A DNA stretch of 64,000 nucleotides, taken from contig CAXWPJ010000009.1 of NCBI GenBank assembly GCA_963664115.2, positions 832,001 to 896,000 on the forward strand, written 5' to 3'. A model generated the notes under the pieces. That model saw only the letters and a program-made list of their open reading frames with translations, searched no databases and was not told the DNA's origin. The stretch is from Terriglobia bacterium. Its GTDB lineage: Bacteria; Acidobacteriota; Terriglobia; 20CM-2-55-15. Shown piece after piece: positions 41,085-57,305 of this stretch; the first letter of the stretch is position 1; every line of letters starts with the position of its first letter. A program made the position numbers and the translations under genes.

Positions 41085-42365
41085 ATGCCCCGAATCCCCT
41101 TCTTGAGCACAAGCCTGTTTGCCGCGTTCCTGCTGCTGGTCTTGCCCCCGGCAAGCCTGTCAGCCCAATCGCTTCCCACAGCCCTACCCGAAGACGTCGG
41201 AATGTCTTCGGAGCGGCTCGAACGGCTGGGGGAAAACCTGCAGGCTTACGTCGACCGGGGAGAGATGGCCGGAAGCGTGGCAATCATCGTGCGGCACGGC
41301 AAGGTGGCCTACCTCGAAGCTTTCGGGCAGCAGGACATCGAAGCCGGACGGGAGATGGCCACCGACAGCATCTTCCGCATCGCATCTCAAACCAAGGCCA
41401 TCGTCACGACGGCCATCATGATGCTTCAGGAAGAAGGCAAGCTCCTGATCAGCGACAGGCTCGCCAACTTCATCCCGGAGTTTGCCCAGACCCGGGTCGC
41501 CGTGGCGCGGGAAGACGGCGGTTACGACATCGAGACCGGCCGGGCTATCACCTTGAGACATCTGATCACGCACACCTCAGGCATCAGCTACGGAACCGGG
41601 CCGGCAAGCGCGGAGTGGGACAAGGCGGGTTTCGAGCAGTGGTACTTTGCCGACAAAGACGAACCTATAGCCGAAACCGTCGCACGCATGGCAAGCCTGC
41701 CTTTTGACGCCCAACCCGGCGAGCGATGGATCTATGGCTACAACATCGACATCCTGGGCGCCGTCGTGGAGAAGGCCTCAGGCATGGCCTTGGACACCTA
41801 TCTGCAAACGCACATCTTCGACCCGCTGGGCATGAACAACACCCACTTCTATCTTCCCAATGACAAGCGGGACCAGTTCGCCGCGGTCTATGGCCGCACG
41901 CCGGGCGGCAAGCTGACGCGCGCGGAGGACTCGGGTGCGTGGACCGGACAGGGGGCCTACGTCGACGGCCCCCGAACGAGCTTCTCCGGCGGCGCCGGCC
42001 TGCTCTCAACCGCAAGCGACTACGCGCGATTTCTTCAGATGCTGCTCAACGGCGGCGCACTCGACGGCCGACGCCTCCTGAGTCCCACAACAGTGAATCT
42101 GATGGGGCAAAACCACATGGGTGACATACCGTTTCGCCCCGGACAAGGCTTCGGACTCGGATTCTCCGTGGTGACCGACGCCGGGGAACGCGGCGTGCCG
42201 GGTTCAGTCGGCGAGTTCGGGTGGGGCGGCGCATACCACTCCACGTACTGGGTGGATCCAGTGAACGACCTCCTCGTGGTCTATCTGACACAACTCCGGC
42301 CCTCGGGTGGAATCGACGACCGCGAGAAGATCCGAACGCTCGTTTACCAAGCCGTCATTGAATAA
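41085..42365 (+). CDS. Secreted serine hydrolase (beta-lactamase-like family)
   Basis: Signal peptide, FRIASQTK (SxxK), LITHTSG, WIYG, WGGAY. Confidence 0.88.
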   Translation: MPRIPFLSTSLFAAFLLLVLPPASLSAQSLPTALPEDVGMSSERLERLGENLQAYVDRGEMAGSVAIIVRHGKVAYLEAFGQQDIEAGREMATDSIFRIASQTKAIVTTAIMMLQEEGKLLISDRLANFIPEFAQTRVAVAREDGGYDIETGRAITLRHLITHTSGISYGTGPASAEWDKAGFEQWYFADKDEPIAETVARMASLPFDAQPGERWIYGYNIDILGAVVEKASGMALDTYLQTHIFDPLGMNNTHFYLPNDKRDQFAAVYGRTPGGKLTRAEDSGAWTGQGAYVDGPRTSFSGGAGLLSTASDYARFLQMLLNGGALDGRRLLSPTTVNLMGQNHMGDIPFRPGQGFGLGFSVVTDAGERGVPGSVGEFGWGGAYHSTYWVDPVNDLLVVYLTQLRPSGGIDDREKIRTLVYQAVIE

Positions 42366-42376
42366 AGACATGCTAT

Positions 42377-42406
42377 TTGACTGCGTTAATCCGCAAGCCG
42401 TAGAAT
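42377..42406 (+). promoter_or_regulatory. Sigma-70 promoter of tRNA-Val
   Basis: TTGACT-18 nt-TAGAAT just upstream of the tRNA. Confidence 0.6.
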
Positions 42407-42423
42407 CCTAGAACACCCTTAAA

Positions 42424-42496
42424 GGGCGCGTAGCTCAGTTGGAAGAGCACTACCTCGACACGGTAGGGGTCATCGGTTCGAGCCCGGTCGCGCCCA
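42424..42496 (+). tRNA. tRNA-Val(GAC), CCA not encoded
   Basis: GGGCGCG acceptor stem, TAGCTCAGTTGGAAGAGC D-arm, CTACC-TCGACAC-GGTAG anticodon arm, GGTTCGAGCCC T-arm. Confidence 0.95.
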
Positions 42497-42567
42497 TTCT
42501 CACTCACAGATCAAAAATAACTTAGGGATGCGCTTGACTGATCTGTGAAGCCGGTCAAAGCTGACGT

Positions 42568-42799
42568 GTGAGGTTCACTCGGTATTTTGAGTCGATGCGT
42601 ATGCGACCTGACCGCGCAACGATTCGAGTGGATTGAAGCAGTTGTCCAAAATCCGGTCAAGGAAACGATTCAATCGGATGGCCGTATCCGTCGTTGGGCA
42701 GCGATACCGGAAATGGAAGACCGGTATTTGCGCGTTATACTTCTGGAAGATGGTGAGACCGTTCACAACGCATTCTTCGATCGCACATTTCAGCCATGA
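42568..42799 (+). pseudogene. Putative toxin (DUF4258/BrnT-like partner of DUF2283), frameshifted
   Basis: GTG-start frame MRFTRYFESMRMRPDRATIRVD stops, while EWIE...DGRIRRW...YLRVILLEDGETVHNAFFDR continues in another frame (shift near 42627). Confidence 0.7.
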
Positions 42800-42993
42800 A
42801 AGTTAAATACTTCAAAGACACGGACACGCTCTACATCGAGTTTCGCCCGGTTGATTCCGCAGAAACGCGAGACCTGGACGAGAACACTCTCCTGGAGATC
42901 GACCCGGAAGGAAAGATCTGCGGTATTACCATCGAGCATGCCAGCGAGCGAACCGATGTCCCGGAATTCTCGTTCGAAGAAATACCTGCCTGA
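42796..42993 (+). CDS. DUF2283 family protein (putative antitoxin)
   Basis: MKVKYFKDTDTLYIEF...GITIEHAS. ATGA overlap with the upstream gene. Confidence 0.85.
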   Translation: MKVKYFKDTDTLYIEFRPVDSAETRDLDENTLLEIDPEGKICGITIEHASERTDVPEFSFEEIPA

Positions 42994-43024
42994 CAGCGTC
43001 CCCGATCAACCCCTCTGCGCCCAC

Positions 43025-43093
43025 GAGCACTACCTCGACACGGTAGGGTCATCGGTTCGAGCCCGGTCGCGCCCATTCTCACTCACAGATCAA
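43025..43093 (+). repeat. Direct repeat of tRNA-Val 3' part plus downstream flank (att-like)
   Basis: Matches 42445-42514 except for one missing G. Confidence 0.92.
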
Positions 43094-43192
43094 TATTCAT
43101 GCCGGTTCCTCTCCGAACCAGTTCCCGCGCAACCCAAATCACGTTGTTGCGCAATGCTTGCCCGATTAATTCGCTAGGGATAGTCTTTGAGT

Positions 43193-43372
43193 ATGACGAA
43201 GTCGGTGGTTTCAACTTCAAATGACGTGATGGGCGGGACTCCTGTGTTCACTGGAACCCGCGTTCCCGTGCAGACGGTTTTCGACTATCTGGAGGCTGGA
43301 GACACCATTGACGAGTTTCTGGACGGGTTTCCGAGCGTTTCCCGTGACCCGGTCGTTCGGTTCCTCAAATGA
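43193..43372 (+). CDS. DUF433 antitoxin, copy 1 (C-terminally shortened, partner toxin absent)
   Basis: VMGGTPVFTGTRVPV...YLEAG..IDEFL..FP. About 10 aa shorter than copies 2 and 3. Confidence 0.8.
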   Translation: MTKSVVSTSNDVMGGTPVFTGTRVPVQTVFDYLEAGDTIDEFLDGFPSVSRDPVVRFLK

Positions 43373-43408
43373 AACCACGATCACGTTTGTATAGGCAGGA
43401 GGTAGGAA

Positions 43409-43500
43409 TTCGGGGACGGAGAACGAACTCAAATCGGTTTCCGCACAGTGGGACGACAGCCCAGGACGGGATGACCTTGAATCGGGTCTCCGTCCCCGAA
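43409..43500. repeat. Inverted repeat element (REP/MITE-like)
   Basis: TTCGGGGACGGAGA ... TCTCCGTCCCCGAA, 14-bp perfect arms. Confidence 0.7.
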
Positions 43501-43552
43501 CTTCAGAACTGTAAGCTTTGATGGATCCGTCGCTCAGGTAAGCGGTCTACTG

Positions 43553-43975
43553 CTAATCCCCCCAGGGCTTCATCTTGGAGGCGTCGAGGCCGCCGAGCTT
43601 GTCAACCTTGGTCCGCACGATCAGTCGCGTTTCGTCTGGAACGCGGAACGGATACTCGTCCAGGTCCATGAACTTCTTGGCCAGCTTGTCGATGTGCGCG
43701 TCGGCACCCTCCTCGCTGATCGTCGCCGTACCATAAAAGACCACGTATGAGCGCTCATTGCTCGGGTCCTGCGCGCTGATAATGATGCGCGGGTCGTTGC
43801 GCAGGTTCCTGGGTTTGAGCCGACCCTCGGACGTGTTAAAAACGACGTCGTCTCCTTCGACATCCAGCCAGACCAGGGTCACTTGCGACCTGCCCTTCGG
43901 ACTATAGGTGGTGACGTGGCCGTGGGCCTTGTCATTCAGAATGTTCTTCACAGCTTCGGGCAAAGTAATCGACAT
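43553..43975 (-). CDS. PPOX-class (putative F420-dependent) oxidoreductase
   Basis: GRSQVTLVW, FNT..GR.K.RNLRNDPR, HIDKLAKK. GGAGGA RBS upstream. Confidence 0.8.
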   Translation of the reverse strand: MSITLPEAVKNILNDKAHGHVTTYSPKGRSQVTLVWLDVEGDDVVFNTSEGRLKPRNLRNDPRIIISAQDPSNERSYVVFYGTATISEEGADAHIDKLAKKFMDLDEYPFRVPDETRLIVRTKVDKLGGLDASKMKPWGD

Positions 43976-44063
43976 ATCATTCCTCCTTGGAGCACCGAAA
44001 GTAACTCTAAGCTCCCTGTGCGTCAATAGCGGCTATTCGGAGTGGCGGAAATCTGGTGGGCCG

Positions 44064-44116
44064 AAAACCGGTTCATGCTCTCAGGGTCTGTCCCCAGAAT
44101 CACGACGGCTTACTTC
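44064..44116 (-). repeat. Degenerate copy of the 3' region of the sigma-54 activator gene
   Basis: AACCGGTTCATGCTCT...CCCAGAATCACGACGGCTT aligns with ~49875-49925. Confidence 0.65.
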
Positions 44117-44396
44117 AGACCAACTCCAAGCGCACCTCGCGGCCGATCACCGTGGCCGCTTTTTGCAGCGTGTTGAGCGTGACGGAATCGTTTTGAGGGT
44201 CTAGCAGGCGGTTGAGAGCCGCGCGGCTGGTGTGCATCCGGCGCGCCATTTCGGCCTTGGACAGGCCTTTCTCCTTCATCGCAGCTTCGACTTGGCGAGA
44301 GAGGACGCGTTTGATGGCAGTCGCGGCCACCTCTTCGTAGATTCCCTCTTCCCTCAACCAGCTATCGAAGGATGATCCGACGTTCTTTTTCTTCAT
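44115..44396 (-). CDS. HTH (XRE/Fis-like) antitoxin
   Basis: GSSFDSWLREEG...LSKAEMARRMHTSRAALNRLLDP...VTL.TL. Confidence 0.88.
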   Translation of the reverse strand: MKKKNVGSSFDSWLREEGIYEEVAATAIKRVLSRQVEAAMKEKGLSKAEMARRMHTSRAALNRLLDPQNDSVTLNTLQKAATVIGREVRLELV

Positions 44397-44749
44397 GCAC
44401 CGCCTCCTTTCTCTTACGTCGGAGCGCCAGGTCCAGATCCCGCTTCGGGGTCTTCGCCGTCTTCTTGACGAAGCCGTGCAGTAGCACCATCACGCCGAGC
44501 TCTTCGGTGAAGATCACGCGGGCGATCCGGCCACCGGCGAGGCGGCTACGGACCTCCCAGAGCCCCTTGCCCAGAGCACGCACCAATGGCATGCCGATCG
44601 GCCAGGCAAATTCAACATCCTTGATGTCCTCACCGATGCGTTTGCGGTCATCCGGTACCAGTCTTTGCAGCCATTCCCGAACAGGTTCGCGGCTACTGAC
44701 TGTTGGAGCGGTAAAAACGGGCCGGTAAACGTTTGAGACCCGGGTTCAA
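44362..44749 (-). pseudogene. RelE/HigB (Gp49-like) toxin, frameshifted by a 4-bp duplication
   Basis: LKRLPARFYRSNS / REPVREWL...WPIGMPLVR..GLWEVRS...LLHGFVKKT. ACTG-ACTG at 44695-44702 breaks the frame. Confidence 0.85.
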
Positions 44750-44755
44750 ATGTAA

Positions 44756-44775
44756 GCGTATCAATTTTGATACGC
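44756..44775. promoter_or_regulatory. Palindromic operator of TA module
   Basis: GCGTATCAA-TT-TTGATACGC directly upstream of the toxin start. Confidence 0.6.
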
Positions 44776-44800
44776 CCCGTCAACGATTGCGGTCGGATGG

Positions 44801-44848
44801 TTGCAGCGTGTTGAGCGTGACGGAATCGTTTCGGGTGTCTAGCGGGCG
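44801..44848. repeat. Direct repeat of antitoxin 3' region
   Basis: TTGCAGCGTGTTGAGCGTGACGGAATCGTTT is identical to 44163-44193, and similarity continues for about 17 bp. Confidence 0.8.
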
Positions 44849-44909
44849 CGCAGCAGTTCCCGGAACTTCTCAAAAGTTCTGGTCCATTCGAACCATCCCC
44901 GCAAAAGCA

Positions 44910-45977
44910 CTATTGCATGTAGCCGCGTTCCCGATAGTAGCGCGCTGCGCCCGGGTGCAGGGGGACTCCGAAAGCTCTCCAGACCGTGTGCGGATTATAG
45001 GAGTAACCGACGTTGACCCACTGCAGGAGATGCTGCTGTTCATCTATCGCTCGGGCCAGGGTATAGGCAAAATCATCGGGCATGTCATCCCGGCCGTAGA
45101 GCGCCGTTCCGGTGTGGGCCACGGCGGGAACCGGACGGTCCACTCCCCTGAACAGGCCGACGGGTATGGCTCTCTCCTCCAGATCGAACTCCTGTGCCAG
45201 TGTGGTCCGAAGGTCTTCGGGCAACTCCAGAAACCGGAGATCCAATTCCTGGTCCAGCTCAAGCCAGTCCGGGTAATGCCCCGATAGAGATCCAAAACCA
45301 ATCATGACGTCGAGAGTCTCGCCTGCTTCTGTGCTGTTTCCGGCGGGGCCTCCGAAAATTTCCACCGCTTCTTCACTCAGGCCGTAATAGTCCAGAACCG
45401 GAGGCGCGAAAGCCCGGCTTTGGTAATGCACGCGAACGCGAACGGGTGAGCCGTTTTCCTCGATCTGGCCGAGGTCTGTGATTCCCGAGTCGGCCTCCAC
45501 TGCGACCAGAAAGTAACTCGGTGTCTGGATGTTGGCGACCAGGCGCAAGCCCCTTCGCGGTCCCTCCGCATCGTCCGCATAATCATGGGTCCCCTCATAA
45601 GCCCACCAGAGGTAGTGCGGTCCCGTCGCGCCAAAATCCAGGGGCCCGTTCGGCGGCGGTGGTCGGTCACTCCCGGGCCGGGGTCTGGCTGGAACCTCTG
45701 CCCCCGCGACTAGCCGTGCTGCCCGCGCCGCACCCGCGCAACTGCGGCAAAGCTGAACATCCCAACCGTAGCCTGCCAGCGCTTCCCTGACCACCGTACC
45801 AATAGCGCCCCAACCCGAGGTCGGACCCGAGCCCCCGAACACCGGTTTCCTCGCCCCATAGCCCGTTTCGTCCGACCCCGTCTGTTGCATTGCCCCGGCC
45901 GGGACACTCGCGAGAAGCATCAGGGATGCCAATACAACCAGGGTCGTACAAACGGCGCTCAAACGCAGTGAACGCAT
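44910..45977 (-). CDS. TAXI-family TRAP solute-binding protein-like
   Basis: Signal peptide, SGITDL, DMPDDFAYTLARAI, GVPLHPGAARYYRERG. Confidence 0.78.
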   Translation of the reverse strand: MRSLRLSAVCTTLVVLASLMLLASVPAGAMQQTGSDETGYGARKPVFGGSGPTSGWGAIGTVVREALAGYGWDVQLCRSCAGAARAARLVAGAEVPARPRPGSDRPPPPNGPLDFGATGPHYLWWAYEGTHDYADDAEGPRRGLRLVANIQTPSYFLVAVEADSGITDLGQIEENGSPVRVRVHYQSRAFAPPVLDYYGLSEEAVEIFGGPAGNSTEAGETLDVMIGFGSLSGHYPDWLELDQELDLRFLELPEDLRTTLAQEFDLEERAIPVGLFRGVDRPVPAVAHTGTALYGRDDMPDDFAYTLARAIDEQQHLLQWVNVGYSYNPHTVWRAFGVPLHPGAARYYRERGYMQ

Positions 45978-46143
45978 AAGGTCCCCCTCCAATTCCAAAG
46001 TAAATGACGCACCGTGGAAGCTGGCATTGTAATTGTTTCTGGGAATGATCGGCCACCGATTCCTGTGGTTTCGGGGTCATGCAGTCCAGAATTTATGTTC
46101 CACGATGCTTGCCCGATTGAGTCGCTGGGCATAGTCTTTGGTT

Positions 46144-46353
46144 ATGATTCAGGCTATCGTCTCGACTTCGGATGACGTGATGGGCGGGACGCCTGTATTC
46201 AGGGGAACCCGCGTTCCCGTGCAGACGCTTTTTGACTATCTGGAGGCCGGAGACACCATTGACGACTTTCTGGATGGATTTCCGAACGTTTCCCGCGACC
46301 AGATTGTTGCATTTCTCGAAGCCGCCCGTGTCCGGATTCTTCCGAATTCTTGA
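46144..46353 (+). CDS. DUF433 antitoxin, copy 2
   Basis: Near-identical to copy 3. Part of a 311-bp duplication (46095-46405 vs 49225-49535). Confidence 0.85.
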   Translation: MIQAIVSTSDDVMGGTPVFRGTRVPVQTLFDYLEAGDTIDDFLDGFPNVSRDQIVAFLEAARVRILPNS

Positions 46354-46362
46354 TGAAGTGAA

Positions 46363-46405
46363 GTGAAACTACTTCTCGACGAGTGCGTCGATCATCGTCT
46401 CGCCA
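46363..46405 (+). pseudogene. DUF5615 PIN toxin 5' fragment
   Basis: Encodes MKLLLDECVDHRLA, then similarity to 49493-49813 ends abruptly. Confidence 0.8.
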
Positions 46406-46763
46406 GGGAAGACTGATTTCCACCTGCAAACTCCAGAACCCTCTCGGCAATTTCACGCTGAGTCTGGGGTTCGGCCCTCCAGTAGTCTGGCCGACGTTTC
46501 AGGTGAGCGATCGCTACCACGACGATCGCGTCCTCTGAAAGACGGTATACGACTTGATACGGGAATCGTTCAACCAGCACGCGTCGCGTCCGGCGATTGG
46601 AAGGCGGTGTGCCTATTTCAGGTTGAGCTTGAATGAAAGCTGTTGCGGCAACGACGGCATCGAAGAATTCGCCACCTAGTCCGGGACGTTGCTCCTCGTA
46701 CCAGCGTACGGCAGCTGAAAATTATTCGCTGGCTGCTTTGAGGTTTCGTAGGGTCCGAGTCAA
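46392..46763 (-). pseudogene. ParE/RelE toxin with internal stop
   Basis: MTRTLRNLKAASE, TAA at 46722-46724, then FSAAVRWYEEQRPGLGGEFF...RFPYQVVY...AIAHLKRRPDYW. TTGA coupling to the antitoxin. Confidence 0.85.
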
Positions 46764-46996
46764 CGGCCAAGGATATCGGTCGCAATACGACGCTTGGCGT
46801 TCTCCCAGGATTCCAGCCGCTCAGTGCCCGCCTCAAGTGCGTTCACTCGTCGCTCGATCTCCTCGGCCCATGCAGTCGCAGCATCCGGGTCAGAAGGGCC
46901 ATCCAGGCTCGCGAGCAACTGGGCTGCAAGTTCGGCGCGAGCTCTTTCATCCAACCGAAGGGCATCGGCAAGGAGGGATTCAGTGGCCTGCGTCAT
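46760..46996 (-). CDS. Addiction-module antitoxin (TIGR02574-like)
   Basis: ALRL...RAELA..LLASL...AWAEEIERR...G.....W. Confidence 0.85.
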   Translation of the reverse strand: MTQATESLLADALRLDERARAELAAQLLASLDGPSDPDAATAWAEEIERRVNALEAGTERLESWENAKRRIATDILGR

Positions 46997-47065
46997 TGCC
47001 CTATTTTACGCCGCCTTCCCGCGCCCAACAAGGATTGACGATCCCAGGCTTTCGAAACTCAACCG

Positions 47066-47133
47066 CACTACATATCCAACCTGTCCAAAAACCGGTTCAT
47101 GCTCTTAGGGTAGATGCCCGCACATACAGAACA
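47066..47133 (-). repeat. Displaced 3' end of the sigma-54 activator gene plus conserved extension
   Basis: Encodes GIYPKSMNRFLDRLDM* versus native [16 protein letters not shown]. Shares GCACAT(A/G)CAGAACA with the 47862 copy. Confidence 0.88.
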
Positions 47134-47142
47134 ATTGGACTG

Positions 47143-47160
47143 TATGTCATATGTGACATA
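47143..47160. promoter_or_regulatory. Palindromic operator of TA module
   Basis: TATGTCA-TATG-TGACATA upstream of the toxin pseudogene. Confidence 0.6.
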
Positions 47161-47173
47161 TACTGTTTTCTGG

Positions 47174-47486
47174 ACGAGCCCGACCGACAAGCCACTTGTA
47201 TGGCTGCATGGTGAGGTCAAAAGCCCGCATCGAAGTTGGATACCTCCTTCGGAAACTTCAACGAGGTGATCGTCTGTCGATGCCCAGATCGAGACCCATG
47301 CCTGTCATCGGATCCCGATGCCACGAATTGCGCGTTCAGGATGAAAGTGAAACGTGGTGATTCCTGTACCGGACCGACCCGGACGCGATAGTAATCGTGG
47401 AAGTATTCAGCAAGAAGACGGGACAAACACCTAAGAAAATTATAGAAGTGTGCCGTCAGCGTCTGAAGGATTACGACAATGCGTGA
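47174..47486 (+). pseudogene. RelE/HigB (Gp49-like) toxin with several lesions
   Basis: ACG in place of a start, SPTDKPLVWLHGEVKSP, a frameshifting deletion, RIEVGYLLRKLQRG...RCHELRV, in-frame TGA at 47358-47360, then EVFSKKT. Confidence 0.85.
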
Positions 47487-47811
47487 ATCAAAAAAGAAAC
47501 GTTTAGCGGCAAAAGGGTGGCGAACGGGAACCACTGACGCATTTCTTGAGCTGAGCTCTGAGGAGTCTGCTTACATTGAGCTAAAGCTCAACTTGAGCGC
47601 CCAGCTTAAGAAGCAGCGCAAGCGAAAACAACTGACCCAGCTCAAGGCGGCCCAGCTCCTGGGGTCGAGCCAGTCTCGGGTAGCCAAGATGGAAGCAGGT
47701 GATCCGTCTGTATCGATTGACCTGCTCATCCGCTCTCTGCTTGCTCTGGGTGCGACTTCAAAAGAACTTGGAAGAATCGTCGGCTCTCCCCAGAAGTCGT
47801 TAGCGAGCTAG
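47479..47811 (+). CDS. HTH (XRE) antitoxin
   Basis: KRLAAKGW...FLELS.EE...LTQ..AA..LGSSQSRVAKMEAGDPSVSIDLL. Confidence 0.88.
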   Translation: MRESKKKRLAAKGWRTGTTDAFLELSSEESAYIELKLNLSAQLKKQRKRKQLTQLKAAQLLGSSQSRVAKMEAGDPSVSIDLLIRSLLALGATSKELGRIVGSPQKSLAS

Positions 47812-47861
47812 AGCAGACGGGGCTTGCTTCGAAAATGCTTCGGACGCGCGGAGCAGGCAAG

Positions 47862-47928
47862 ACTACATATCCAACCTCTCCAAAAGCCGGTTCATGCTCT
47901 TAGGGTAGATGCCCGCACATGCAGAACA
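47862..47928 (-). repeat. Displaced 3' end of the sigma-54 activator gene plus conserved extension
   Basis: Encodes [16 protein letters not shown]. Near-identical to 47066-47133. Confidence 0.88.
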
Positions 47929-47969
47929 TCGATACGCCGACTGTCGATGAGTGTCGGGGGCCTACGGGC

Positions 47970-48560
47970 CTACGGGCCTACCAGCGATAGAAGCGGTAAC
48001 AAATCACCGCCGTCAGCGGCCCTCAGGGCGGCAATGTATTGTGCGCGACGATCCCCGATGGACTGAAGGTCATGGCCTGCGGTCCAGTCTATTGGGGCGT
48101 GCCTGAAGCGCTCTTTGAGATAGACATTGGCAGCAATCCGGGCATGGCGTCCGTTGCCGTTTGGAAATAGGTGAATTTGCACCATGCGGTGATGGAAGCG
48201 AACAGCGGCTTCCAAGGGCGGGTACGTGTCGTTTTCGGACCAGTAACGGGCGTCGTCCAGGAGCATTCGAAGCTGAACGGCGATCTGTTCCGGCTCGACG
48301 CCAATGGTCTTTTCGGTAAGCCTGTAGGTGCCGGCCCAATTCCAAACCTGCCCGAAAAGGCGACGATGCAATTCGCGCACAAACGGCTCCTCTAGAATGT
48401 CCGTATTGGAGCGCTCCAGCCAGGCTAAGCCGTCCTGAATGTTCGACTGTTCCAGCTGGTCCAGTTCGCCACGGATAGTGACGTGCTTGAACTTCAGTCC
48501 TTCAAATTCGTCGGGATCAACGGGTGTTGCCCCGTCGGGCTCGTCACTGATCGGCATCAC
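47970..48560 (-). CDS. Mobile mystery protein B (Fic domain)
   Basis: GATPVDPDE..GL, LHRRLFG.VW.WAG.YR, Fic motif HLFPNGNGRHAR. Confidence 0.9.
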   Translation of the reverse strand: MMPISDEPDGATPVDPDEFEGLKFKHVTIRGELDQLEQSNIQDGLAWLERSNTDILEEPFVRELHRRLFGQVWNWAGTYRLTEKTIGVEPEQIAVQLRMLLDDARYWSENDTYPPLEAAVRFHHRMVQIHLFPNGNGRHARIAANVYLKERFRHAPIDWTAGHDLQSIGDRRAQYIAALRAADGGDLLPLLSLVGP

Positions 48561-49027
48561 CTATCAACCCAGAGATCGGACGGCATGGCCCGTGTCATTT
48601 CCCGGGCGATGCGTTCGATTTCATCCATGTTTTGCAATTCGGACAAAGACTGGCCTTCTAGCGCCATTTGGTTGCTGGCCTGGGTGACAAGCGCCTTGGC
48701 CTTTCTTCGCGCCTGGGCGGCAATGACTTCTTCGATCTCGCCTTTCGGCACGACCGAGTATACAAATCGGCAGCCCATGGCCTCGGCCACGGCGTGCATT
48801 GTTCTCAGCGTGACTCCGCCACCAGTTTCGGCCCTCTCTGCCTGGGAAACACGTGCGCGCGTGACGCCAAGCCGTTTCGCGAGTTGGGCCCCGGACATGC
48901 CGAGTGCCTTGCGAACGGTCGCTATCCAGCCCTCAGGGGGCACACTTGTCCCTTGCAGGCCGAACTGGCGAGCTGTGCGATTGACGATTGCCCGATACTG
49001 GCTGGCTGCGGTGGCTCTAACGCTCAT
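48557..49027 (-). CDS. Mobile mystery protein A (HTH)
   Basis: PPEGWIATVRKALGMSGAQLAKRLGV...MALEGQ. Coupled to protein B. Confidence 0.9.
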   Translation of the reverse strand: MSVRATAASQYRAIVNRTARQFGLQGTSVPPEGWIATVRKALGMSGAQLAKRLGVTRARVSQAERAETGGGVTLRTMHAVAEAMGCRFVYSVVPKGEIEEVIAAQARRKAKALVTQASNQMALEGQSLSELQNMDEIERIAREMTRAMPSDLWVDR

Positions 49028-49273
49028 TGTGTTAACCTTTTATGCAAATGAAATGCAATATCTGTATACATATATATATACGTATCAGAACTATATGTAA
49101 ATATAACTATTAACATAATAGCTAACATCGTCAATATATAACTAAACATATCTGGTGTGCGTCTCGTACAGCCTGCTGAAGCTAGAGGTCTGGGCGCGGG
49201 ACGCGGTCACGCGGTCCACATATAATGTTCCACGATGCTTGCCCGATTAAGTCGCACGGCGTAGTCTTTGGAT

Positions 49274-49483
49274 ATGACCGAGTCGATCGTCTCAACTTCG
49301 GATGACGTGATGGGCGGAACGCCTGTATTCAGGGGGACCCGCGTCCCCGTGCAGACGCTTTTTGACTATCTGGAGGCGGGAGACAGCATTGACGAGTTTC
49401 TGGACGGATTCCCGAGCGTTTCCCGCGACCAGATTGTTGCATTTCTCGAAGCCGCCCGTGTCCGGATTCTTCCGAATTCTTGA
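49274..49483 (+). CDS. DUF433 antitoxin, copy 3
   Basis: VMGGTPVFRGTRVPVQTLFDYLEAG. Preceded by TTGCCC-17 nt-TAGTCT, shared by all three copies. Confidence 0.88.
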   Translation: MTESIVSTSDDVMGGTPVFRGTRVPVQTLFDYLEAGDSIDEFLDGFPSVSRDQIVAFLEAARVRILPNS

Positions 49484-49492
49484 TGAAGTGAA

Positions 49493-49813
49493 GTGAAACT
49501 ACTTCTCGACGAGTGCGTCGATCATCGCCTCGCCAAAGACAGCGTTGGTCACGAGACTCGAACCGTCAATCAAATGGGCTGGAGTGGTACCGAAAACGGA
49601 GCCCTTCTCACTCTGGCAGCCGCCGAGTTTGATGGGTTCATCACGACTGATCGCAATCTTGCCTTTCAGCAAAACATTCAGCAGTTTAAAATTGGTGTCA
49701 TCGTTCTGGAAGCTCGGAGCAATCGCCTGGATGAACTTCGGCGCTTAGTTCCAGCACTTCTCGAGGCGCTAGGGCTCCTCCGCGCCGGTGAAACCCGTAA
49801 GCTTGACCTCTAA
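49493..49813 (+). CDS. DUF5615 PIN-like toxin (apparently intact)
   Basis: MKLLLDECV, GWSG.ENG.LL..A, FITTDRNL..QQN. Confidence 0.85.
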   Translation: MKLLLDECVDHRLAKDSVGHETRTVNQMGWSGTENGALLTLAAAEFDGFITTDRNLAFQQNIQQFKIGVIVLEARSNRLDELRRLVPALLEALGLLRAGETRKLDL

Positions 49814-49852
49814 CAAATCCTTGAGGTCCTAAGCTGAGCTTGGCGAACACCA

Positions 49853-50842
49853 CTACATATCCAACCTCTCCAGCAACCGGCTCATGCTCTTCGGATGGAT
49901 TCCCAGAATGACGGCGGCTTGTTTCCGGTTGCCGTCGGTCAGCTCCAGGACGTTTTCGACGAACTCCCGCTTGGTCGCCAACACGACTTCCTCTAGTGTT
50001 TGGGGCAGATTGGGAGCACGGTCCGAAGCTTCGGAATCACCGCGTGATGGCGCCTTCAAATACTCCGGCAAATCTTCAACACCAATAGTCTCCGAAGACC
50101 CCAGGACCATCGCCTGCTCGATCGCGTTGCCGAGTTGCCGGACGTTCCCGGGCCAGTCGTAGCGCGCGAGAAAAACGCCGGCCTCAGGGGAAATCTCACG
50201 AGGCCGCACGCCGCACTCCCGCGCATACTTCTCAACAAAATGCCGCGCCAACACGGGAATGTCTTCTCTCCGCTCCCTCAGCGGCGGCGTCTCAACGTAA
50301 AGGACGTTCAACCGATAGTAGAGGTCTTCGCGAAACTCACCGGCGCCGACGGCCACTTCAAGATCGCGGTTGGTCGCGGCCACCAGACGGATATCCACCG
50401 GGACAGGCCGACGCCCACCAACCCTGTCGATTTCACGTTCCTGCAAGGCACGGAGTAGCTTGGCTTGAATGCGAGCGCCCAGTTCCCCGACTTCATCCAG
50501 AAACAATGTCCCGCCCGAGGCCAGCTCGAACTTCCCCTGCTTTTGCCGATCGGCTCCGGTAAAGGCGCCGCGCTCGTGACCAAAGAGCTCGCTTTCGAGC
50601 AAATCTTCAGATAACGCCGCGCAATTGACGGCCACGAACGGGCCGCCCCGACGCCGGCTATTACCATGCAGCGCCCGCGCCACCAGTTCCTTTCCGGTGC
50701 CGCTTTCCCCCGCTACGAGGACCGTGGAGTTTGTGCGAGCGGTCCGGGCTATAAATTCCACCAGGCGACGCATAGGACGGCTGTCGCCCACCATGTCGTG
50801 GTCGATGGCAATGCCCGCACCCAAAGCGGAACCTCTGCTCAC
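49853..50842 (-). CDS. Sigma-54-dependent activator (AAA+ and Fis HTH, no sensory domain)
   Basis: [40 protein letters not shown]-terminal HTH. Confidence 0.93.
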
Positions 50843-51942
50843 TCCCTCCGCTCTCTCCTTCCACGGGCGTCATCCGCAGAAAGCACATCAATGGCCACGT
50901 CGATCCCCCGCCGCGTCTTCAGGTTGATCTCACGGATCGCCCGCCACAACACCAGCAACAGGACGAATGCCGCCAGGTTGATCCACACCTGCACCCAGTC
51001 CACCCCGGAGGCCAGAGGGTCACGCGACACCCAGCGCCAGAGGGCGATCAGAAAGGGCACGGCGACTGAGGCAAAAGAAAGATCCACAAAAGCGGCGGCC
51101 CAGGACACGCGCCCGGCCTCACGACCGTCCCATCCGAAAAGCCGCGCACGTCTCACCGTCAGTGCGTCTTTATATGAATCCGGGTCCAGGCTCAGCAGGG
51201 CCGGCCGGTGCCCCTTACCCAATGGGATATCGCCCCTGGCCCGAAACGCATAAGCAAAGCTGAACGCGGTCAGCGGCAACAGGGTCAGGAAGAAGTCCCG
51301 TCCCCCACCCCCGGCCGGGACCGCTTCCAGATTGCTCCAGATCAAGGTCATCCCGGCCATCATCCACAGCAGGTTCAAGCGCCATGTGGCCTCATACCGC
51401 TCATCTAACCGGACACGCCTGGCGTCGTTTGGGGGTTTCAATCGGAAGGCCATGCGCCACCCCGATACCATCGCCATACCGATCAGCGTCCCCCGCAGCA
51501 TCACCGGTCCCTCCATCACCATGGTGGGCGCGATAATTGCCATAAATGTCTGGGCAAGAACAAGGAACGTCGCTCCGGCAACGGCATCGGAGACGGCTTC
51601 GCGCGCGGTTCCCCGTGCCGGATGGATATAGGCATCCCGCGCCAGAAGTGCGGTGAGTGTGGTCAACAGGACAATCGCCACCGGCAGGAGCGGTGCCCCG
51701 GCAAAGGCGACATAGAGAAGGGCAACTTCCCCCGCAATCAACCGGACGTCGAAACAGTCCAGCATCCGCCCGCGCAGGCTGCCCGCGATCGTGGACGCAG
51801 CAAACCACAGGTATTGCCACCCACCCAGAGACTGCTCTCGCAGATCCCCTGCGATGAGGTCCCGATGTGCGGATGGAATCAGGACTTCGACCAGACGGAC
51901 CAGCCATTCAGGCGGCCCTACTTTGCGCGTTTGGGTCTCCAT
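50839..51942 (-). CDS. Multi-pass membrane protein
   Basis: N-terminal PP.WL..L...LIAGDLRE segment typical of PadR-adjacent permease prefixes, followed by many hydrophobic helices. Confidence 0.7.
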
Positions 51943-52277
51943 TTTCCGACCTTAGCCGATGCGTAGAACGATTCCGACACCCGCGCCGCCGTCGCTACAC
52001 TCTCTTCCAAAGCCCGGAGTCCGGCAGGTTCGAGCCGATAAAACCGCTTCGGCTTCCCACCCCGCTCGGCAGTGCCTGCGGCAACGCTCGACCTTACGTA
52101 TGCTTTGTTCTGCAAGCGGTCCAGCGTCACATAAACCGACCCCAGGTTGACCTGCCGGTCTGCCAGTTCGCAGACCTTGGAATAAATCGGCATGCCGTAG
52201 GCGTCTCCTTGAAGCGACATCACGGCGGTGAGTACAAGCTGTTCAAACTGTCCAAGAGAATCCGTTAACTTGGCCAT
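51918..52277 (-). CDS. PadR-family regulator (acidobacterial type)
   Basis: LGQFEQLVL.A...AYG..I...GSVYVTLDRL..K...ERGGKPKRFY. Confidence 0.9.
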   Translation of the reverse strand: MAKLTDSLGQFEQLVLTAVMSLQGDAYGMPIYSKVCELADRQVNLGSVYVTLDRLQNKAYVRSSVAAGTAERGGKPKRFYRLEPAGLRALEESVATAARVSESFYASAKVGKWRPKRAK

Positions 52278-52293
52278 TAGTTTCACCTTATTT

Positions 52294-52812: not shown

Positions 52813-52986
52813 ATGGCTAAACACACGAATACGCGGACGGTTTACCGCGATTCGATCGATGGGCGCTTCATCACGCGAATCCAGGCCTAGAAGCGTCCCA
52901 AAACAACTGAAAAACAGAAACTAAAACTCGATCAATCGAAGCAAAGACCGGCAGCTTCAAATTCCAACAAAGGAGAAACGAATTGA
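52813..52986 (+). pseudogene. Small basic protein with internal TAG
   Basis: AGGAGG RBS, MAKHTNTRTVYRDSIDGRFITRIQA, TAG at 52888, then KRPKTTEKQK. Confidence 0.5.
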
Positions 52987-53672
52987 AACGGAAAATCCTG
53001 ACCGAAAGACGTGGATTCAAGAAACTGCGCCAGATGGCCGACTTTGTCCTGGCGAATCACAAACGTTTCGCACCGACTTCGCCAGCGGCAAAGGCGGTTC
53101 CCGCTGTCGTCGCGACGGTCAAGAAGCTGAAAACTCTAACGGCTTCACAAGGCTCTGTCGAAAACCGACTGCGCGAGCTGTCACGTACAAAGTCTGAAAC
53201 ACGCGGCGCCTTGCGTGAAGAAGTCGAATTTCTCTACCACACGGCAGGAGCTCTAGCCGCCGGAGATCCCGGCTTTGACGATCCGTTCCGGATGGCGTTG
53301 GGCGGGGATCAGAGGCTGGTCAACGACGCACGCTCCGCGGTTCAAGACGCAGTGCCCGTGGCAGCAGCGTTCATCAAGCACGCCATGCCTCCTGATTTTC
53401 TGGAGAACTTGAAAACGAGCATCCGGAAGTTCGAATCGGCCCGCGAGGAATACGCCAAGATCAAAACGGATCGCACCATGGGCCGCAAGGCCCTCCAGGA
53501 AAGCCTCCGTCAAGCCCTGGCGGCCGGCAAACGCTTCGACGCGATCATGCGCAATACCTTCCGCCACGATCGCCTCGCGCTTCAAGCCTGGAAAGACGCC
53601 TGCCGCGTGCCGCGGGGGCCCAAGCCACCACGGCCTGAGGTGGCTGATGCGTCAGAGGCGACTGACCAATAA
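52983..53672 (+). CDS. Hypothetical alpha-helical protein
   Basis: AAGGAG RBS, 229-aa ORF with amphipathic helical composition. Confidence 0.75.
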   Translation: MKRKILTERRGFKKLRQMADFVLANHKRFAPTSPAAKAVPAVVATVKKLKTLTASQGSVENRLRELSRTKSETRGALREEVEFLYHTAGALAAGDPGFDDPFRMALGGDQRLVNDARSAVQDAVPVAAAFIKHAMPPDFLENLKTSIRKFESAREEYAKIKTDRTMGRKALQESLRQALAAGKRFDAIMRNTFRHDRLALQAWKDACRVPRGPKPPRPEVADASEATDQ

Positions 53673-53739
53673 CTGATTGCGCCCATCCGCGGACCTCATC
53701 AACTGTGGGGTCCGCGGCTTCGGGAGAGGAATACTGATC

Positions 53740-53919
53740 ATGGACAATCACAGCGACATCATGCGCGCCCTCGGACGCATTGAAGGAGAGCTTGTTGAGA
53801 TTCGGAAGCTTTCGGAGCGGGTTTCCAAGCTTGAGCAGTGGCAGTCGTGGCTGAGAGGCGGCTGGGCTGTTGTGACGGCGGCCGTAGGGTATCTGGTTTG
53901 GATGAGGTATGGGAAGTAA
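53740..53919 (+). CDS. Small coiled-coil plus C-terminal TM protein (XhlA/holin-like)
   Basis: GAGAGGA RBS. 59 aa with coiled-coil then one hydrophobic helix. Precedes a candidate cell-wall enzyme. Confidence 0.6.
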   Translation: MDNHSDIMRALGRIEGELVEIRKLSERVSKLEQWQSWLRGGWAVVTAAVGYLVWMRYGK

Positions 53920-53979
53920 GAGCGGTCTCCCAGTACCGGGCGTCCCGACTCTTTAAGCGCACCCGAAGGAATCAACCCA

Positions 53980-54588
53980 ATGGATCCACCCGTCCTGTCT
54001 GAAATCATTCGCGCGATGCGGTCGAAATCGTACCGGGTATTCCGGAACGACAAGGGACACGACCTGAACATCGTCGGCATCCGGACCGCCGACAATCGCG
54101 CCAACACTTTCAACGACTGGCTCACCGTCTTCTATCGCTTCAAGCGCACCTGGAACTATTTCGCTTTCCCGGCCACCACAGACCCGGGAACCTACTACCG
54201 GAAGCACCCAATCAACGTCCGCGGAACCGCCATCATGCAGCCCGGCCAATACCCGGGCGCCTACAAGATCGGCCGCCACCGGCGATACAAAGCACTCCAG
54301 CAGAAAGGCCCGATCACGCTATTCCGTGATGCCGACCGAAACGAAACCATCGACACTATCGATACGATGGGTACCCCCCAAAGCGGCATCGACCGCATCA
54401 ACGGCATCAACATCCACCGCGCCAACGCCCACCACCCCAGCACCCAAGTAGGAAAATGGAGCGCCGGGTGCCAGGTTCTCCAAGACCCCGATCACTTCGC
54501 TTTTCTTCTTACGCTTGCGGAAAGGGGACGGGAGAAGTTTGGAAATTCGTTTACTTATACGTTAATTGAAGAAGGGGATTTGGGGTGA
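53980..54588 (+). CDS. Putative cell-wall peptidase (L,D-transpeptidase-like H...SAGC motif)
   Basis: NIVGIR, FND, ATTDPG, GINIHRA...VGKWSAGCQV. No signal peptide. Confidence 0.6.
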   Translation: MDPPVLSEIIRAMRSKSYRVFRNDKGHDLNIVGIRTADNRANTFNDWLTVFYRFKRTWNYFAFPATTDPGTYYRKHPINVRGTAIMQPGQYPGAYKIGRHRRYKALQQKGPITLFRDADRNETIDTIDTMGTPQSGIDRINGINIHRANAHHPSTQVGKWSAGCQVLQDPDHFAFLLTLAERGREKFGNSFTYTLIEEGDLG

Positions 54589-54791
54589 GGAGGGGAGGGG
54601 GCTGGACGCGATCCATAGCCGTGAAAGCTTGCGACATCAAGTCGGTCTTGACCGCACACACCAAGCCATGCCCCGCAATTCGTATGCCAGCCCGCGCAGG
54701 AAATTCACCTTTGGGACCTGACTAGGGCAGACATTCACTCTAGACTTAACCAGACGGAAACTCTAACAATTGAAGGCGGGGCTAATCCGAC

Positions 54792-55496
54792 ATGAAAACG
54801 GGAGATCTTGTCGATACACTCTCTTTCTTCTCCAACGAGATCGTCGGAACGCTCCTCCCGGGGTTTGTGCTCCTAACTGGCCTCAGAGTATTCCATTTTG
54901 GATTTGAGATTCCGTCTTGGATTCAAAGTGGCAATGGAATTTGGTTTGCAGTTGTGGTTGTCTTAGCCTTTAGTTACGTCGCGGGACACGGCCTATTGGC
55001 GCTTCGCAACATACTCATTCCCTACCTAGGAAGGTCAAGCGGAAAGCTGTACAAGAGTGCAGAAAACGGAGGTATGTACCGCGCCTTTTCTCTTCGCGTG
55101 CGGATGCTCGAAATACTTCGGAGCGGACGTTCCGTAGGCAAGGCGAACGATGATTTCCCTGATAATCTGAATTTTAATGATCGACGGAATTTAGCGATGT
55201 CACTATCAACTGAAGCGGCAGTTCTAGGTAGGCGTTTCATGTTTATTGCACTTTTCTCGTACGGCGTCGCCGTTGCACTCTTCGTCTTCGCGGTTTACGC
55301 GCCTTTGGTGTTGTTAATTAGGCCAGACTTGGCTGCGCTTTCCCTGAGCGCTCTTGCTGTCAGACTCGGAATATTTTTGTTAGTTCTCGTCGGATTGATA
55401 TTTTGGCACAGGGGCGAATCCTTTGAGAGGCGAGCGTACTCGGCTCCCTTTTCGGCGGCTCTGGCAGAGCTCTTGCACGGTAGGATAGAGCAGTGA
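54792..55496 (+). CDS. Multi-TM hypothetical protein (about 4 TM)
   Basis: Hydrophobic pairs (LLPGFVLL; SYVAGH; FIALFSYG; LGIFLLVL). Lower GC than the core genes. Confidence 0.75.
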   Translation: MKTGDLVDTLSFFSNEIVGTLLPGFVLLTGLRVFHFGFEIPSWIQSGNGIWFAVVVVLAFSYVAGHGLLALRNILIPYLGRSSGKLYKSAENGGMYRAFSLRVRMLEILRSGRSVGKANDDFPDNLNFNDRRNLAMSLSTEAAVLGRRFMFIALFSYGVAVALFVFAVYAPLVLLIRPDLAALSLSALAVRLGIFLLVLVGLIFWHRGESFERRAYSAPFSAALAELLHGRIEQ

Positions 55497-56172: not shown

Positions 56173-56454
56173 ATGGCGAAACGACGGAATTTTTCAGCAG
56201 ATTTCAAAGCGAAGGTAGCGCTGGCCGCGATGCGTGGCGACGGCACGATGGCCGAATTGGCGGCGCGGTACAAGATCCATCCGAACATGATCACGAAGTG
56301 GAAGCGTGATGCGCTTGATAGCGTTAAAGAAGGATTCCAGCGAGGCCGGGATCCATCGGCCCGGAACCACGAGGACGAGATCAAAGACCTGCAGGCCAAG
56401 ATCGGTGAACTGGTCGTGGAACGGGATTTTTTAGCACGAGCCTTCAATCGATGA
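56173..56454 (+). CDS. IS3 transposase OrfA
   Basis: RRNFSADFKAKVAL, HTH, leucine zipper KIGEL..ERDFL. Confidence 0.92.
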   Translation: MAKRRNFSADFKAKVALAAMRGDGTMAELAARYKIHPNMITKWKRDALDSVKEGFQRGRDPSARNHEDEIKDLQAKIGELVVERDFLARAFNR

Positions 56455-57305
56455 GCTTGGGTCGAAGGCGCAAGGTGGTCGAACCGGGCCATGAGCAGCT
56501 CAGTGTGGTCCGGCAATGCGACTTGATCGGGTTGAGCCGTTCGAGTTGGTACTATCGGCCACGGGGTGAGAGTGATCGCAATCTGGACCTGATGCGCGTG
56601 ATCGACGAGGCGTATCTGAAGATGCCCTGGTATGGGTCCAGGCAGATGACGCGTCATCTGAAACGTCTCGGCTACGATGTGGGCCGGAAGCGGGTACGCC
56701 GACTAATGCGGTTGATGGGGCTGCGCTCGGTGGCACCGCAGCCGCAGACGTCCCGGAGAAACCCGGCTCATCCGGTGTACCCATATCTACTCAACGACAT
56801 TGCCGTGGAGCGGGCGAATCAAGCGTGGTCTACCGACGTGACGTATATCCCGATGGCGCACGGATTCTTATATCTGGTCGCGATCATGGACTGGCATACG
56901 CGGAAGGTGTTGTCCTGGCGGCTGTCCAACACCCAGGACACGACGTTTTGCCTTGAAGCCCTCGACGAGGCGATCGAGGAATACGGCAGTCCGGAAATCT
57001 TCAACACCGATCAGGGCAGCCAGTTCACCAGCAAGGCCTGGACGGACCGACTTAAAGAACGAGGTATCCGGATCTCCATGGACGGCAAGGGGCAATGGAT
57101 CGACAACGTTTTCATCGAACGCCTATGGCGCTCGATCAAATACGAATGCGTTTATCTAAACGCCTTCAGTGACTTCAAAGATGCCCGGCACCACATAGGT
57201 GTCTGGATGAACTATTACAATAACGACCGCCCGCATTCCAAACTCGACGATCTCACGCCGAGCGAAGCCTACGCGGGAACACGGCCACTGACCTCGGCAG
57301 CATAA
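56451..57305 (+). CDS. IS3 transposase OrfB (DDE)
   Basis: WSTDVTY, FNTDQGSQF, DNVFIERLWRSIKYE. Confidence 0.95.
   Translation: MSLGRRRKVVEPGHEQLSVVRQCDLIGLSRSSWYYRPRGESDRNLDLMRVIDEAYLKMPWYGSRQMTRHLKRLGYDVGRKRVRRLMRLMGLRSVAPQPQTSRRNPAHPVYPYLLNDIAVERANQAWSTDVTYIPMAHGFLYLVAIMDWHTRKVLSWRLSNTQDTTFCLEALDEAIEEYGSPEIFNTDQGSQFTSKAWTDRLKERGIRISMDGKGQWIDNVFIERLWRSIKYECVYLNAFSDFKDARHHIGVWMNYYNNDRPHSKLDDLTPSEAYAGTRPLTSAA

Follow-up and report, generated by a model that had tools for sequence, protein, structure and literature searches.

The window analysed in this study, a stretch of 64,000 nucleotides (832001-896000 of contig C9), belongs to the genome of an uncultured acidobacterium, 4,892,581 bases in 12 contigs (G000 below). 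It holds a gene for a sigma-54 activator, behind which small cassettes, carrying mostly toxin-antitoxin genes, are arranged in a row. The last ~52 bases (~16 codons) of the activator gene recur downstream of it in the same orientation, a claim made in a preliminary description of this DNA and with which both a repeat search and alignments agreed. Two other genomes of the same genus, G002 and G004, were used for comparison.

The activator matched the Pfam families PF00158 (6e-71), PF25601 (2.3e-28) and PF02954 (1.4e-06, residues 293-324). It combines an AAA+ sigma-54 interaction domain with a C-terminal helix-turn-helix (HTH) of the Fis type, the two features by which bacterial enhancer-binding proteins are recognized, and no N-terminal sensor domain was found in it by Pfam. 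Upstream of the gene lie a PadR gene and an open reading frame (ORF) of 367 amino acids without a Pfam family.

The native tail (c3) and the displaced copies (c2, c1 and c0; table 1) were aligned, and all have the same orientation and start 1 nt past the stop codon. Taking 47067-47133 as the reference of a 67-nt repeat family, 47862-47928 was 96% and 49852-49918 73% identical, and the likeness of the displaced copies to the gene stopped after about 52 nt. A separate 27-nt repeat family added 44061-44087, which is part of c0. The left border lies at the stop codon in seven of the eight complete copies known from G000, G002 and G004. Copies c1 and c2 have an identical run of 34 nt in common and preserve both the reading frame and the stop (the translation of c1 ends in CSVCAGIYPKSMNRFLDRLDM and a stop), with conservative changes, as had been described. 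Equally in agreement with the preliminary description, both copies carry the extension GCACAT(A/G)CAGAACA, which starts from one common junction and is not in the native gene; a MAFFT alignment also allows an 8-nt insertion followed by CAGAAC, resembling CAGAAT of the gene. The degenerate fourth copy that had been proposed is present (c0), but it is of another kind. Its translation is AVVILGTDPESMNRFS with no stop, and on its right side the place of the 14-nt extension is taken by activator-body-like sequence (CCCAGAATCACG...).

A core of 10 bases, TCATGCTCTT, was found in nearly all aligned copies, and both copies of the c0 type have a final C, not T. Within the gene this core coincides with the K-S-M codons of the HTH_8 recognition helix. 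Past the core, ~10 residues vary between genomes and copies, again by conservative changes (among them S/N, L/F and E/D), as expected from the earlier proposal that the C-terminus of the activator could be swapped with each event. Such changes might alter DNA binding by the activator.

When the whole genome of G000 was searched with a 74-nt copy, eight matches were obtained at E<=10. Four of them are the copies at this locus (E 1.7e-32 to 1.6e-4), and the other four were 14-20 nt long with E values of at least 1.1. Since only the matches at the locus scored well, the pattern is not due to chance, and the tail repeat in G000 is restricted to this locus.

Table 1. Features of the activator locus, from the gene outwards (positions are those of the window)
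Feature	Position	Strand	Remarks
Sigma-54 activator gene	49853..50842	-	Target gene, 329 amino acids; AAA+ sigma-54 interaction domain, lid, Fis-type HTH_8
Native gene tail c3	49852..49904	-	Stop codon 49853-49855; 10-base core TCATGCTCTT at 49882-49891
Cassette E2	47929..49851	mixed	1990 bp core to core; between c2 and native tail
PIN-like DUF5615 gene (E2)	49493-49813	+	Pfam
DUF433 gene (E2)	49268-49483	+	Pfam
Mobile mystery protein A (E2)	48557-49027	-	TIGR02612 6.2e-48
Fic/mobile mystery protein B (E2)	47970-48560	-	TIGR02613 7.7e-74
Displaced tail copy c2	47862..47928	-	Core 47892-47901; 14-nt extension GCACATGCAGAACA
Cassette E1	47134..47861	+	795 bp core to core; between c1 and c2
XRE-type antitoxin, intact (E1)	47479-47811	+	Pfam HTH_37/HTH_3
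Gp49/HigB-like toxin gene, broken (E1)	about 47150-47478	+	Frameshift and in-frame TGA (three-frame translation)
Displaced tail copy c1	47067..47133	-	Core 47097-47106; 14-nt extension GCACATACAGAACA
Unit E0, presumably the oldest	44111..47066	mixed	~3 kb; between c0 and c1
Unstab_antitox antitoxin (E0)	46760-46996	-	Pfam
ParE-like toxin (E0)	46392-46757	-	In-frame stop, where G004 has GAA
DUF433 gene (E0)	46138-46353	+	Truncated DUF5615 start adjoining
NMT1_3 solute-binding-type gene (E0)	44910-45998	-	362 amino acids; Pfam
Antitoxin 3'-end remnant (E0)	44801-44848		Repeat comparison
Gp49-like toxin (E0)	44393-44730	-	No canonical start codon ahead of domain
XRE antitoxin (E0)	44115-44396	-	Pfam
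Degenerate tail copy c0	44061..44110	-	First ~20 nt missing; then activator-body-like ~27 nt up to antitoxin stop codon
PNPOx-like gene	43553..44026	-	Conserved left flank of variable region; Pfam PF01243

The cargo of the array was characterized by a domain scan of the 20 ORFs in 41085-52286 with Pfam, and NCBIfam was also used. The type II toxin-antitoxin pairs detected were Gp49/XRE (twice), ParE/Unstab_antitox, Fic (mobile mystery protein B)/HTH (mobile mystery protein A) and DUF433/DUF5615, and by these domain matches the cargo is assigned to known families of type II systems. The earlier statement that different toxin-antitoxin cargo lies between consecutive copies was correct in that the cargo differs and is mostly of this type, and it has to be amended for E0, which also carries the NMT1_3 gene. 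The cassettes contain two to seven genes in both orientations, and they are compact, as cargo genes and sites are less than 60 nt apart. All four genes of E2 are full length. Three of the five toxins, in the older cassettes E1 and E0, are disrupted or have no start codon, and every antitoxin is intact. The cargo of E1 is unrelated to that of E2, yet 26 of the 27 bases to the right of the core are alike in the two cassettes, and the likeness ends at one same base.

The cassettes showed no traces of integrase, relaxase or transfer genes, and no homing endonuclease domain (LAGLIDADG, HNH, GIY-YIG etc.) was detected in the scanned ORFs; the only nuclease-like cargo adjoining the native tail is the PIN-like DUF5615 protein. 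Further copies of the cassettes were not found elsewhere in G000, nor was E2 found in the genomes G001-G004, save for one 80-nt match at 79%. In a plasmid collection nine records matched 47060-49930, all only in the mobile mystery protein B/A region (64-72% identity), and no record of a phage collection matched the same segment.

Three repeats or compositional features in and near the cassettes were also observed. An AT-rich stretch of 120 nt at 49030-49150, in a genome that is GC-rich, lies between the genes of mobile mystery protein A and DUF433, and may be a promoter/operator region common to both sides or the seam of two fused cassettes. A 48-nt piece from the 3' coding part of the XRE antitoxin (44163-44210) is repeated (92%) upstream of its toxin gene at 44801-44848, where it is left over from an older antitoxin tail. 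Finally, a 300-nt segment comprising the DUF433 gene, its upstream region and the DUF5615 start occurs three times (43121-43420, 46072-46371 and 49202-49501), each time 0.7-1.0 kb before a tail copy. The second and third of these segments are 91% identical, and identity to the first is 67%.

None of the 20 scanned ORFs matched a recombinase or transfer family, and neither PF00589 nor PF00239 had a match in the array, which confirms that the array itself is integrase-less. The sole PF00589 match in the window is a XerC-type gene 10 kb away (31231-32193), which is most likely a housekeeping gene because of its position behind topA and a GIDA-family (trmFO-type) gene. PF00239 had no match on the contig of the window, and no tyrosine or serine recombinase genes were found near the arrays of G002 and G004. 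The patterns of the junctions had no matches in metagenome, viral and species-representative genome collections, exact patterns being a narrow net. A 20-nt extension pattern was found at eight loci of the species-representative genomes; the tail adjoins it only in G004, and the other seven loci look like chance matches. The whole genome of G000 has 27 PF00589 matches, 26 of which exceed the curated cut-off, and three PF00239 matches. It was also observed that G000 contains, outside the window, six PF00589 matches of identical score (frames of 306 amino acids) and G001 contains 20 (311 amino acids), which represent a multi-copy tyrosine recombinase element.

In G002 the PNPOx-like gene and the activator stop are only 388 nt apart, as against 5.8 kb in the window, and 44043-49852 is therefore variable DNA. 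The PNPOx-like gene of G002 (L029 16865-17345) is 93% identical to window 43562-44042, and its activator is 87% identical to that of G000. The gap of 388 nt contains a single ORF of 94 amino acids without a Pfam family; it had been called HicB-like by eye, and Pfam did not confirm this. Among the matches listed from 40 relatives, G002 had the only clear ortholog of the activator. In a metagenome search for relatives of the activator, the closest of the best 80 loci was 55% identical, so no further orthologous loci were available for comparison. Family-wide and order-wide DNA searches, which covered the same 35 genomes, detected the tail repeat in three of them, namely G000, G002 (native copy only) and G004 (five matches).

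The array of G004 does not contain E2, which provides in a relative an empty site as implied by the preliminary description. An ortholog of E1 is present (94% identical) and directly adjoins the tail of the activator gene. An in-frame TAG disrupts its toxin gene, a mutation that differs from those in G000 and arose independently. The c1 ortholog is split by a MITE-like (miniature inverted-repeat transposable element) insert of ~325 nt, and the c0 ortholog (L039 8930-8999) has a complete left side. G004 also holds an ortholog of the NMT1_3 gene, while the orthologs of E0 are partial and their order is different. The ParE/antitoxin module is joined in G004 to a tail copy that extends ~150 nt into the activator body (an ORF of 69 amino acids with HTH_8), and there is an extra ParE pair, absent from the window.

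Some features of the G004 locus stand apart from the array structure. The insert (L039 10685-11008) has terminal inverted repeats of ~30 nt and probably represents a MITE family of the genus, because a similar translated stretch occurs in G002 (L122). The activator gene itself (L039 11786-12535) is broken into two ORFs in different frames, and it ceases to resemble the window at ~750 nt from the stop; the tail copy and E1 are retained despite this. Moreover, a fragment of ~100 codons at L039 7143-7508 resembles the 3' part of a neighbouring gene for a TonB-dependent-receptor-like protein of 1065 amino acids, from which it is 2 kb downstream. It is preceded by an IS481-type transposase and a DUF433/DUF5615 pair, and a piece of activator body is fused to it.

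The position of the joints was determined by comparing the genomes directly. Window 47106-47904 corresponds to G004 L039 11009-11827 (94%) and window 49852-50581 to L039 11785-12533; these overlap on L039, and one tail copy is therefore common to both segments. A contig of run X7, which is G004-like (90-95% alike, with the same 20 extra letters at 47225), joins 47891 to 49882 and skips 1990 bases, and the 10 letters that fit either side are the core. Copy c2 consists of the left half of the G004 native copy (AAAAGCCGGT) and a right half of the extension type, and the native copy of G000 has a different left half (AGCAACCGGC) followed by the gene body. Because c2 and the native copy of G000 are hybrids about the core, these comparisons place the E2 exchange within those 10 nt, as opposed to the identical run of 21 nt that adjoins the stop codon.

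Another joint pointed to the same place. In G000 the core connects the ParE/antitoxin module and the left half of a tail with the extension and E1, and in G004 the same module and left half are joined to 150 nt of activator body and another ParE pair. Among the eight complete copies of the three genomes, left and right types are mixed in combination across the core. The fixed crossover of the preliminary description was thus upheld in part: G004 and the X7 contig lack exactly the 1990 bases from core to core, but the right borders are of three kinds and some borders of the array are illegitimate deletions.

Read data were used to establish whether the locus is real. Contigs from runs X11, X13 and X14, which belong to three studies, tile 43900-50100 at an identity of at least 99%, with breaks only at repeats. 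All junctions between repeat and unique sequence are covered, e.g. by contigs over 47096-47916 and 47891-49348 or 49375. Since these contigs come from three runs of three studies and cover both segments and junctions, a gross assembly artefact is ruled out, which settles a doubt raised at the outset. One joint of X13 that appeared to go back was rejected as a rearrangement, as the far end of the contig matches the DUF433 paralogue to the left of the studied stretch. Run X5 yielded fragments only, and X1, X3, X4 and X5 were uninformative on structure. It was also found that X1, X3 and X4, which are labelled sponge metagenome, contain 12, 8 and 8 low-depth pieces (at least 99%; 151-334 nt) identical to the window.

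The best explanation of these data, in which we place about even confidence, is that non-autonomous cassettes similar to cis-mobilizable elements (CIMEs) accreted in tandem via a recombinase acting in trans, the newest next to the gene. Three integrase-less cassettes would have been inserted successively by conservative recombination at the core within the last 16 codons of the activator. Each cassette would circulate with its own tail copy, consisting of the left half, the core and then AGGGTAGATGCCC with the 14-nt extension, and the circle would recombine with the gene-proximal site. The site-specific recombinase would be supplied by a partner element or by the host. Every insertion would give the gene a new tail and move the old tail downstream, and the newest cassette would adjoin the gene. 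The topology of the array is that of Campbell-type insertion of circles with a copy of the gene tail. Only the gene-proximal E2 is intact, and the older cassettes have dead toxins and live antitoxins, a gradient that fits insertion at the gene-proximal site. The cassettes may either have been born small or be decayed larger elements that were retained for their addiction modules.

Several observations weigh against accretion by a recombinase in trans. Neither a recombinase nor an integrase-bearing partner with this site was found, and the exact-pattern scans of the metagenome, viral and species-representative genome collections yielded nothing more than G004. Simple tyrosine-recombinase sites show dyad symmetry, and no dyad (arms of 9 nt, at most 2 mismatches, spacer of 4-10 nt) was present in the three 87-nt site stretches. 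The sequence common to the cassettes is only about 67 nt, which is short for an attP of the arm type. No alternative joint, excised form or circle was seen in the contigs of X11, X13 and X14, contigs being assemblies that drop rare variants. The E2 difference could be a gain in the G000 line or a loss in the G004 line, either of which is an exchange at the core, and the evidence for where the crossover lies comes from two natural comparisons in one genus. The right borders of the displaced copies comprise about 60 nt plus extension, 80 nt (c0) and 150 nt (G004), and a body-only activator fragment also occurs in G004. Finally, the border of the ParE module falls inside the gene, and G004 lacks window 44168-44884 by a plain deletion of 716 nt with no repeat at the joint. 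This deletion removes the whole XRE antitoxin/Gp49-like toxin pair and does not end at the 48-nt repeats (44163/44801).

The structure of the sites was also compared with that of two known recombination systems. An attC site is an imperfect palindrome whose R''/L''/L'/R' boxes let it fold as a single strand. When six 67-mers were folded in this way, they scored no better than shuffled sequences (z -0.61 to +0.46), and no inverted repeat was present, so a reading of the sites as integron attC was rejected. The modules that depend on Xer (IMEX, pdif modules) have a dif-like site of 28 bp, in which 6-8 nt separate two inverted arms. A dif-like candidate was located by a dif pattern on contig C2 at about 108 kb, and the sites showed no likeness to it; with dyads also missing, a Xer/dif reading was rejected.

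A possible but less probable explanation is tail displacement without a dedicated recombinase, as proposed for the displaced C-terminal tips of rhs-type genes. Circles or fragments with a 3' piece of the activator and cargo would enter by a single crossover of the RecA type or through short homology, and later crossovers between the copies would shuffle and delete cassettes. In all three genomes the array and its vicinity lack an integrase or resolvase, and the sites lack dyad symmetry. This is consistent with tail displacement, as is the presence of gene fragments of three lengths, as if each incoming piece had brought its own. Moreover, the 34-nt identical run of c1 and c2 suffices for homologous exchange, and other short repeats of gene ends look like products of the same process (the antitoxin 3' end at 44163/44801 and the TonB-receptor 3' fragment of G004). 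However, RecA needs a minimal length of homology, for which a stretch of about 52 nt with ~80% identity would be a very poor substrate. The E2 exchange took place in an identical stretch of 10 nt, though a run of 21 nt was available 20 nt away, and E1 and E2, with unrelated cargo, have the same 27 nt to the right of the core with a likeness that ends at one base. It is for the latter two reasons that site-specific insertion is preferred.

Random tandem duplication of the gene end and the sequence downstream, followed by decay and unrelated insertions and involving no mobile cassettes, appears unlikely. It would account for the many pseudogenes and illegitimate joints and for the threefold 300-nt DUF433 segment, whose spacing of about 3 kb is like that of the tail copies, but apart from this segment the sequences between the copies are unrelated. 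In addition, E2 is missing from G004 precisely from core to core, and the left borders coincide with the stop codon in nearly all complete copies. An integron-type array, a cluster of attC sites lacking integron-integrases (CALIN) in which the attC sites overlap with tail-like sequence, would explain the row of small cassettes with toxin-antitoxin cargo and no nearby integrase. It is highly improbable, as the folds described above refute it at the level of site structure and the cassettes carry two to seven genes each in both orientations. An equally negligible chance is left to an assembly artefact caused by the repeats: short-read contigs do break at every repeat, but the contigs of the three runs cover all unique segments and junctions, and G004 has a related array.

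A broader version of insertion in trans, which we consider doubtful, would make the locus an integrase-free and attC-free capture platform. A host recombinase, or another one acting in trans, would work at a short double-stranded site in the coding tail of the regulator, where toxin-antitoxin cassettes born small would be inserted, excised and reshuffled. The recognition helix of the activator would be rewritten at each event, and other gene tails or the ends of tRNA genes in the genus might be used likewise.

If the cassettes are indeed moved by an enzyme encoded elsewhere, the locus would be a natural test bed of compact size for the capture and shuffling of integrase-less DNA at a gene tail, since the core has 10 bases, there are three sites and one cassette measures 0.8 kb. 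About ten residues of the DNA-recognition helix of a regulator would be swapped by each event. If tail displacement holds instead, this would be a clear case of cassette build-up by homologous displacement outside the world of rhs and contact-dependent inhibition (CDI) genes. The locus also illustrates how addiction modules may persist as the last survivors at insertion hot spots. A modest practical point is that annotation pipelines miss such borders, and that short ORFs over displaced tails are not genes.

Arrangements with a similar layout were observed at tRNA genes. The last 52 nt of tRNA-Val(GAC) at 42424-42496 and 18 nt downstream (together 42445-42514) are repeated at 43025-43093 (69 of 70 nt, one G fewer). 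These repeats enclose a 510-nt cassette with a DUF2283 gene and an ORF of 70 amino acids without a family, and no integrase, as in the layout of the activator array. In G002 the tRNA-Val gene and the displaced 3' piece are 130 kb apart, with no PF00589 among the matches listed between them. The 3' ends (~31 nt) of another tRNA occur in rows in G001 (L120 8362, 8979 and 10163) and G002 (L121 4497; L122 4373 and 6788) at a spacing of 0.6-2.4 kb. The same 15-nt arm precedes four of these six ends and a variant of it precedes a fifth. The cargo of these rows (a ParE-like pair, an esterase and a hydrolase) is only partly of the toxin-antitoxin type, and neither a tRNA gene nor an integrase was found in the stretches examined.

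Other elements of the neighbourhood were recorded as well. A hairpin behind DUF433 at 43409-43500 has arms of 24 nt that are 83% complementary, and a palindromic family spread over the genome, GGGGACGGACAC...GTGTCCGTCCCC, with 93 matches to a short core motif, is similar to its arm. A palindromic repeat family was also observed in G001 (L127). A second hairpin repeat, 40 nt long, is absent from the window, while the genome contains 131 copies of it, which often form rows. About 6-9 kb past the activator operon lie an IS3-type transposase gene (rve, 56451-57305) and a DUF4007 gene (58882-59628). No Pfam family was assigned to the ORFs at 52983-55496 and 57308-58795.

Integrase-less CIMEs with attL/attR are described as being stacked by insertion at an att site that holds the end of a target gene, an example of such accretion being the elements related to ICESt1/ICESt3 in Streptococcus thermophilus, where the 3' end of fda is the target (PMC5704250). 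Like CIMEs, the cassettes have no integration or transfer genes, and their borders (c1, c2 and the native copy) repeat a gene tail in direct orientation. As in CIME accretion, E2 stands beside the gene, presumably as an insertion, and G004 lacks it from core to core. Unlike CIMEs, the units are only 0.8-3 kb long and contain almost only toxin-antitoxin pairs, and there is no functional partner element or cognate integrase in three genomes, nor do remnants give evidence of descent from an integrative and conjugative or integrative and mobilizable element (ICE/IME). The target also differs from that of the fda case, as it is the tail of an acidobacterial sigma-54 activator gene, where the HTH is encoded. 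In the tycheposons of Prochlorococcus, older elements are displaced each time a new one integrates at the common site, and partial copies of the target are left between the elements (bioRxiv 10.1101/2020.12.28.424599). The directional growth next to the attachment site and the gradient from the proximal end are alike in the array studied here, but tycheposons carry tyrosine recombinases and target tRNA genes, whereas here a protein-coding tail is used and no recombinase was seen. The pattern does recur here at a tRNA gene, the neighbouring tRNA-Val (42445-43093). With these precedents of CIME accretion and directional island growth, the terms integron-like and undescribed system of the preliminary description were too strong.

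In Streptomyces turgidiscabies the island PAISt, which occupies the 3' end of bacA, shows modular excision (PMC4057263). Like the array, it has a short att site where a protein-coding gene ends, internal att copies and separately movable modules, but it is large and conjugative, has its own integrase and uses an 8-bp palindrome, whereas the core found here is not palindromic. In Acinetobacter, pdif/dif modules are moved by XerC/XerD (PMC6449649, PMC13141974). These modules are also small, often contain toxin-antitoxin pairs, lack their own recombinase and are bounded by short sites. The pdif sites, however, are dif-like and 28 bp long, alternate in orientation and are found on plasmids, with shuffling between replicons, whereas the sites here are direct repeats of a gene tail on a chromosome and have no dif-like arms. 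Sedentary integrons hold toxin-antitoxin cassettes (PMC13108822), and a row of small cassettes including such pairs is a feature the array has in common with integrons and CALINs; unlike these, it has no attC hairpins, no IntI, and multi-gene cassettes in both orientations. No description of a locus of this type was found in the open-access text of the literature. The kind of process is already known, and what is unusual is the scale of 0.8-3 kb with almost pure toxin-antitoxin cargo, together with the lack of a cognate recombinase in three genomes and the choice of target, the HTH tail of a regulator in an acidobacterium.

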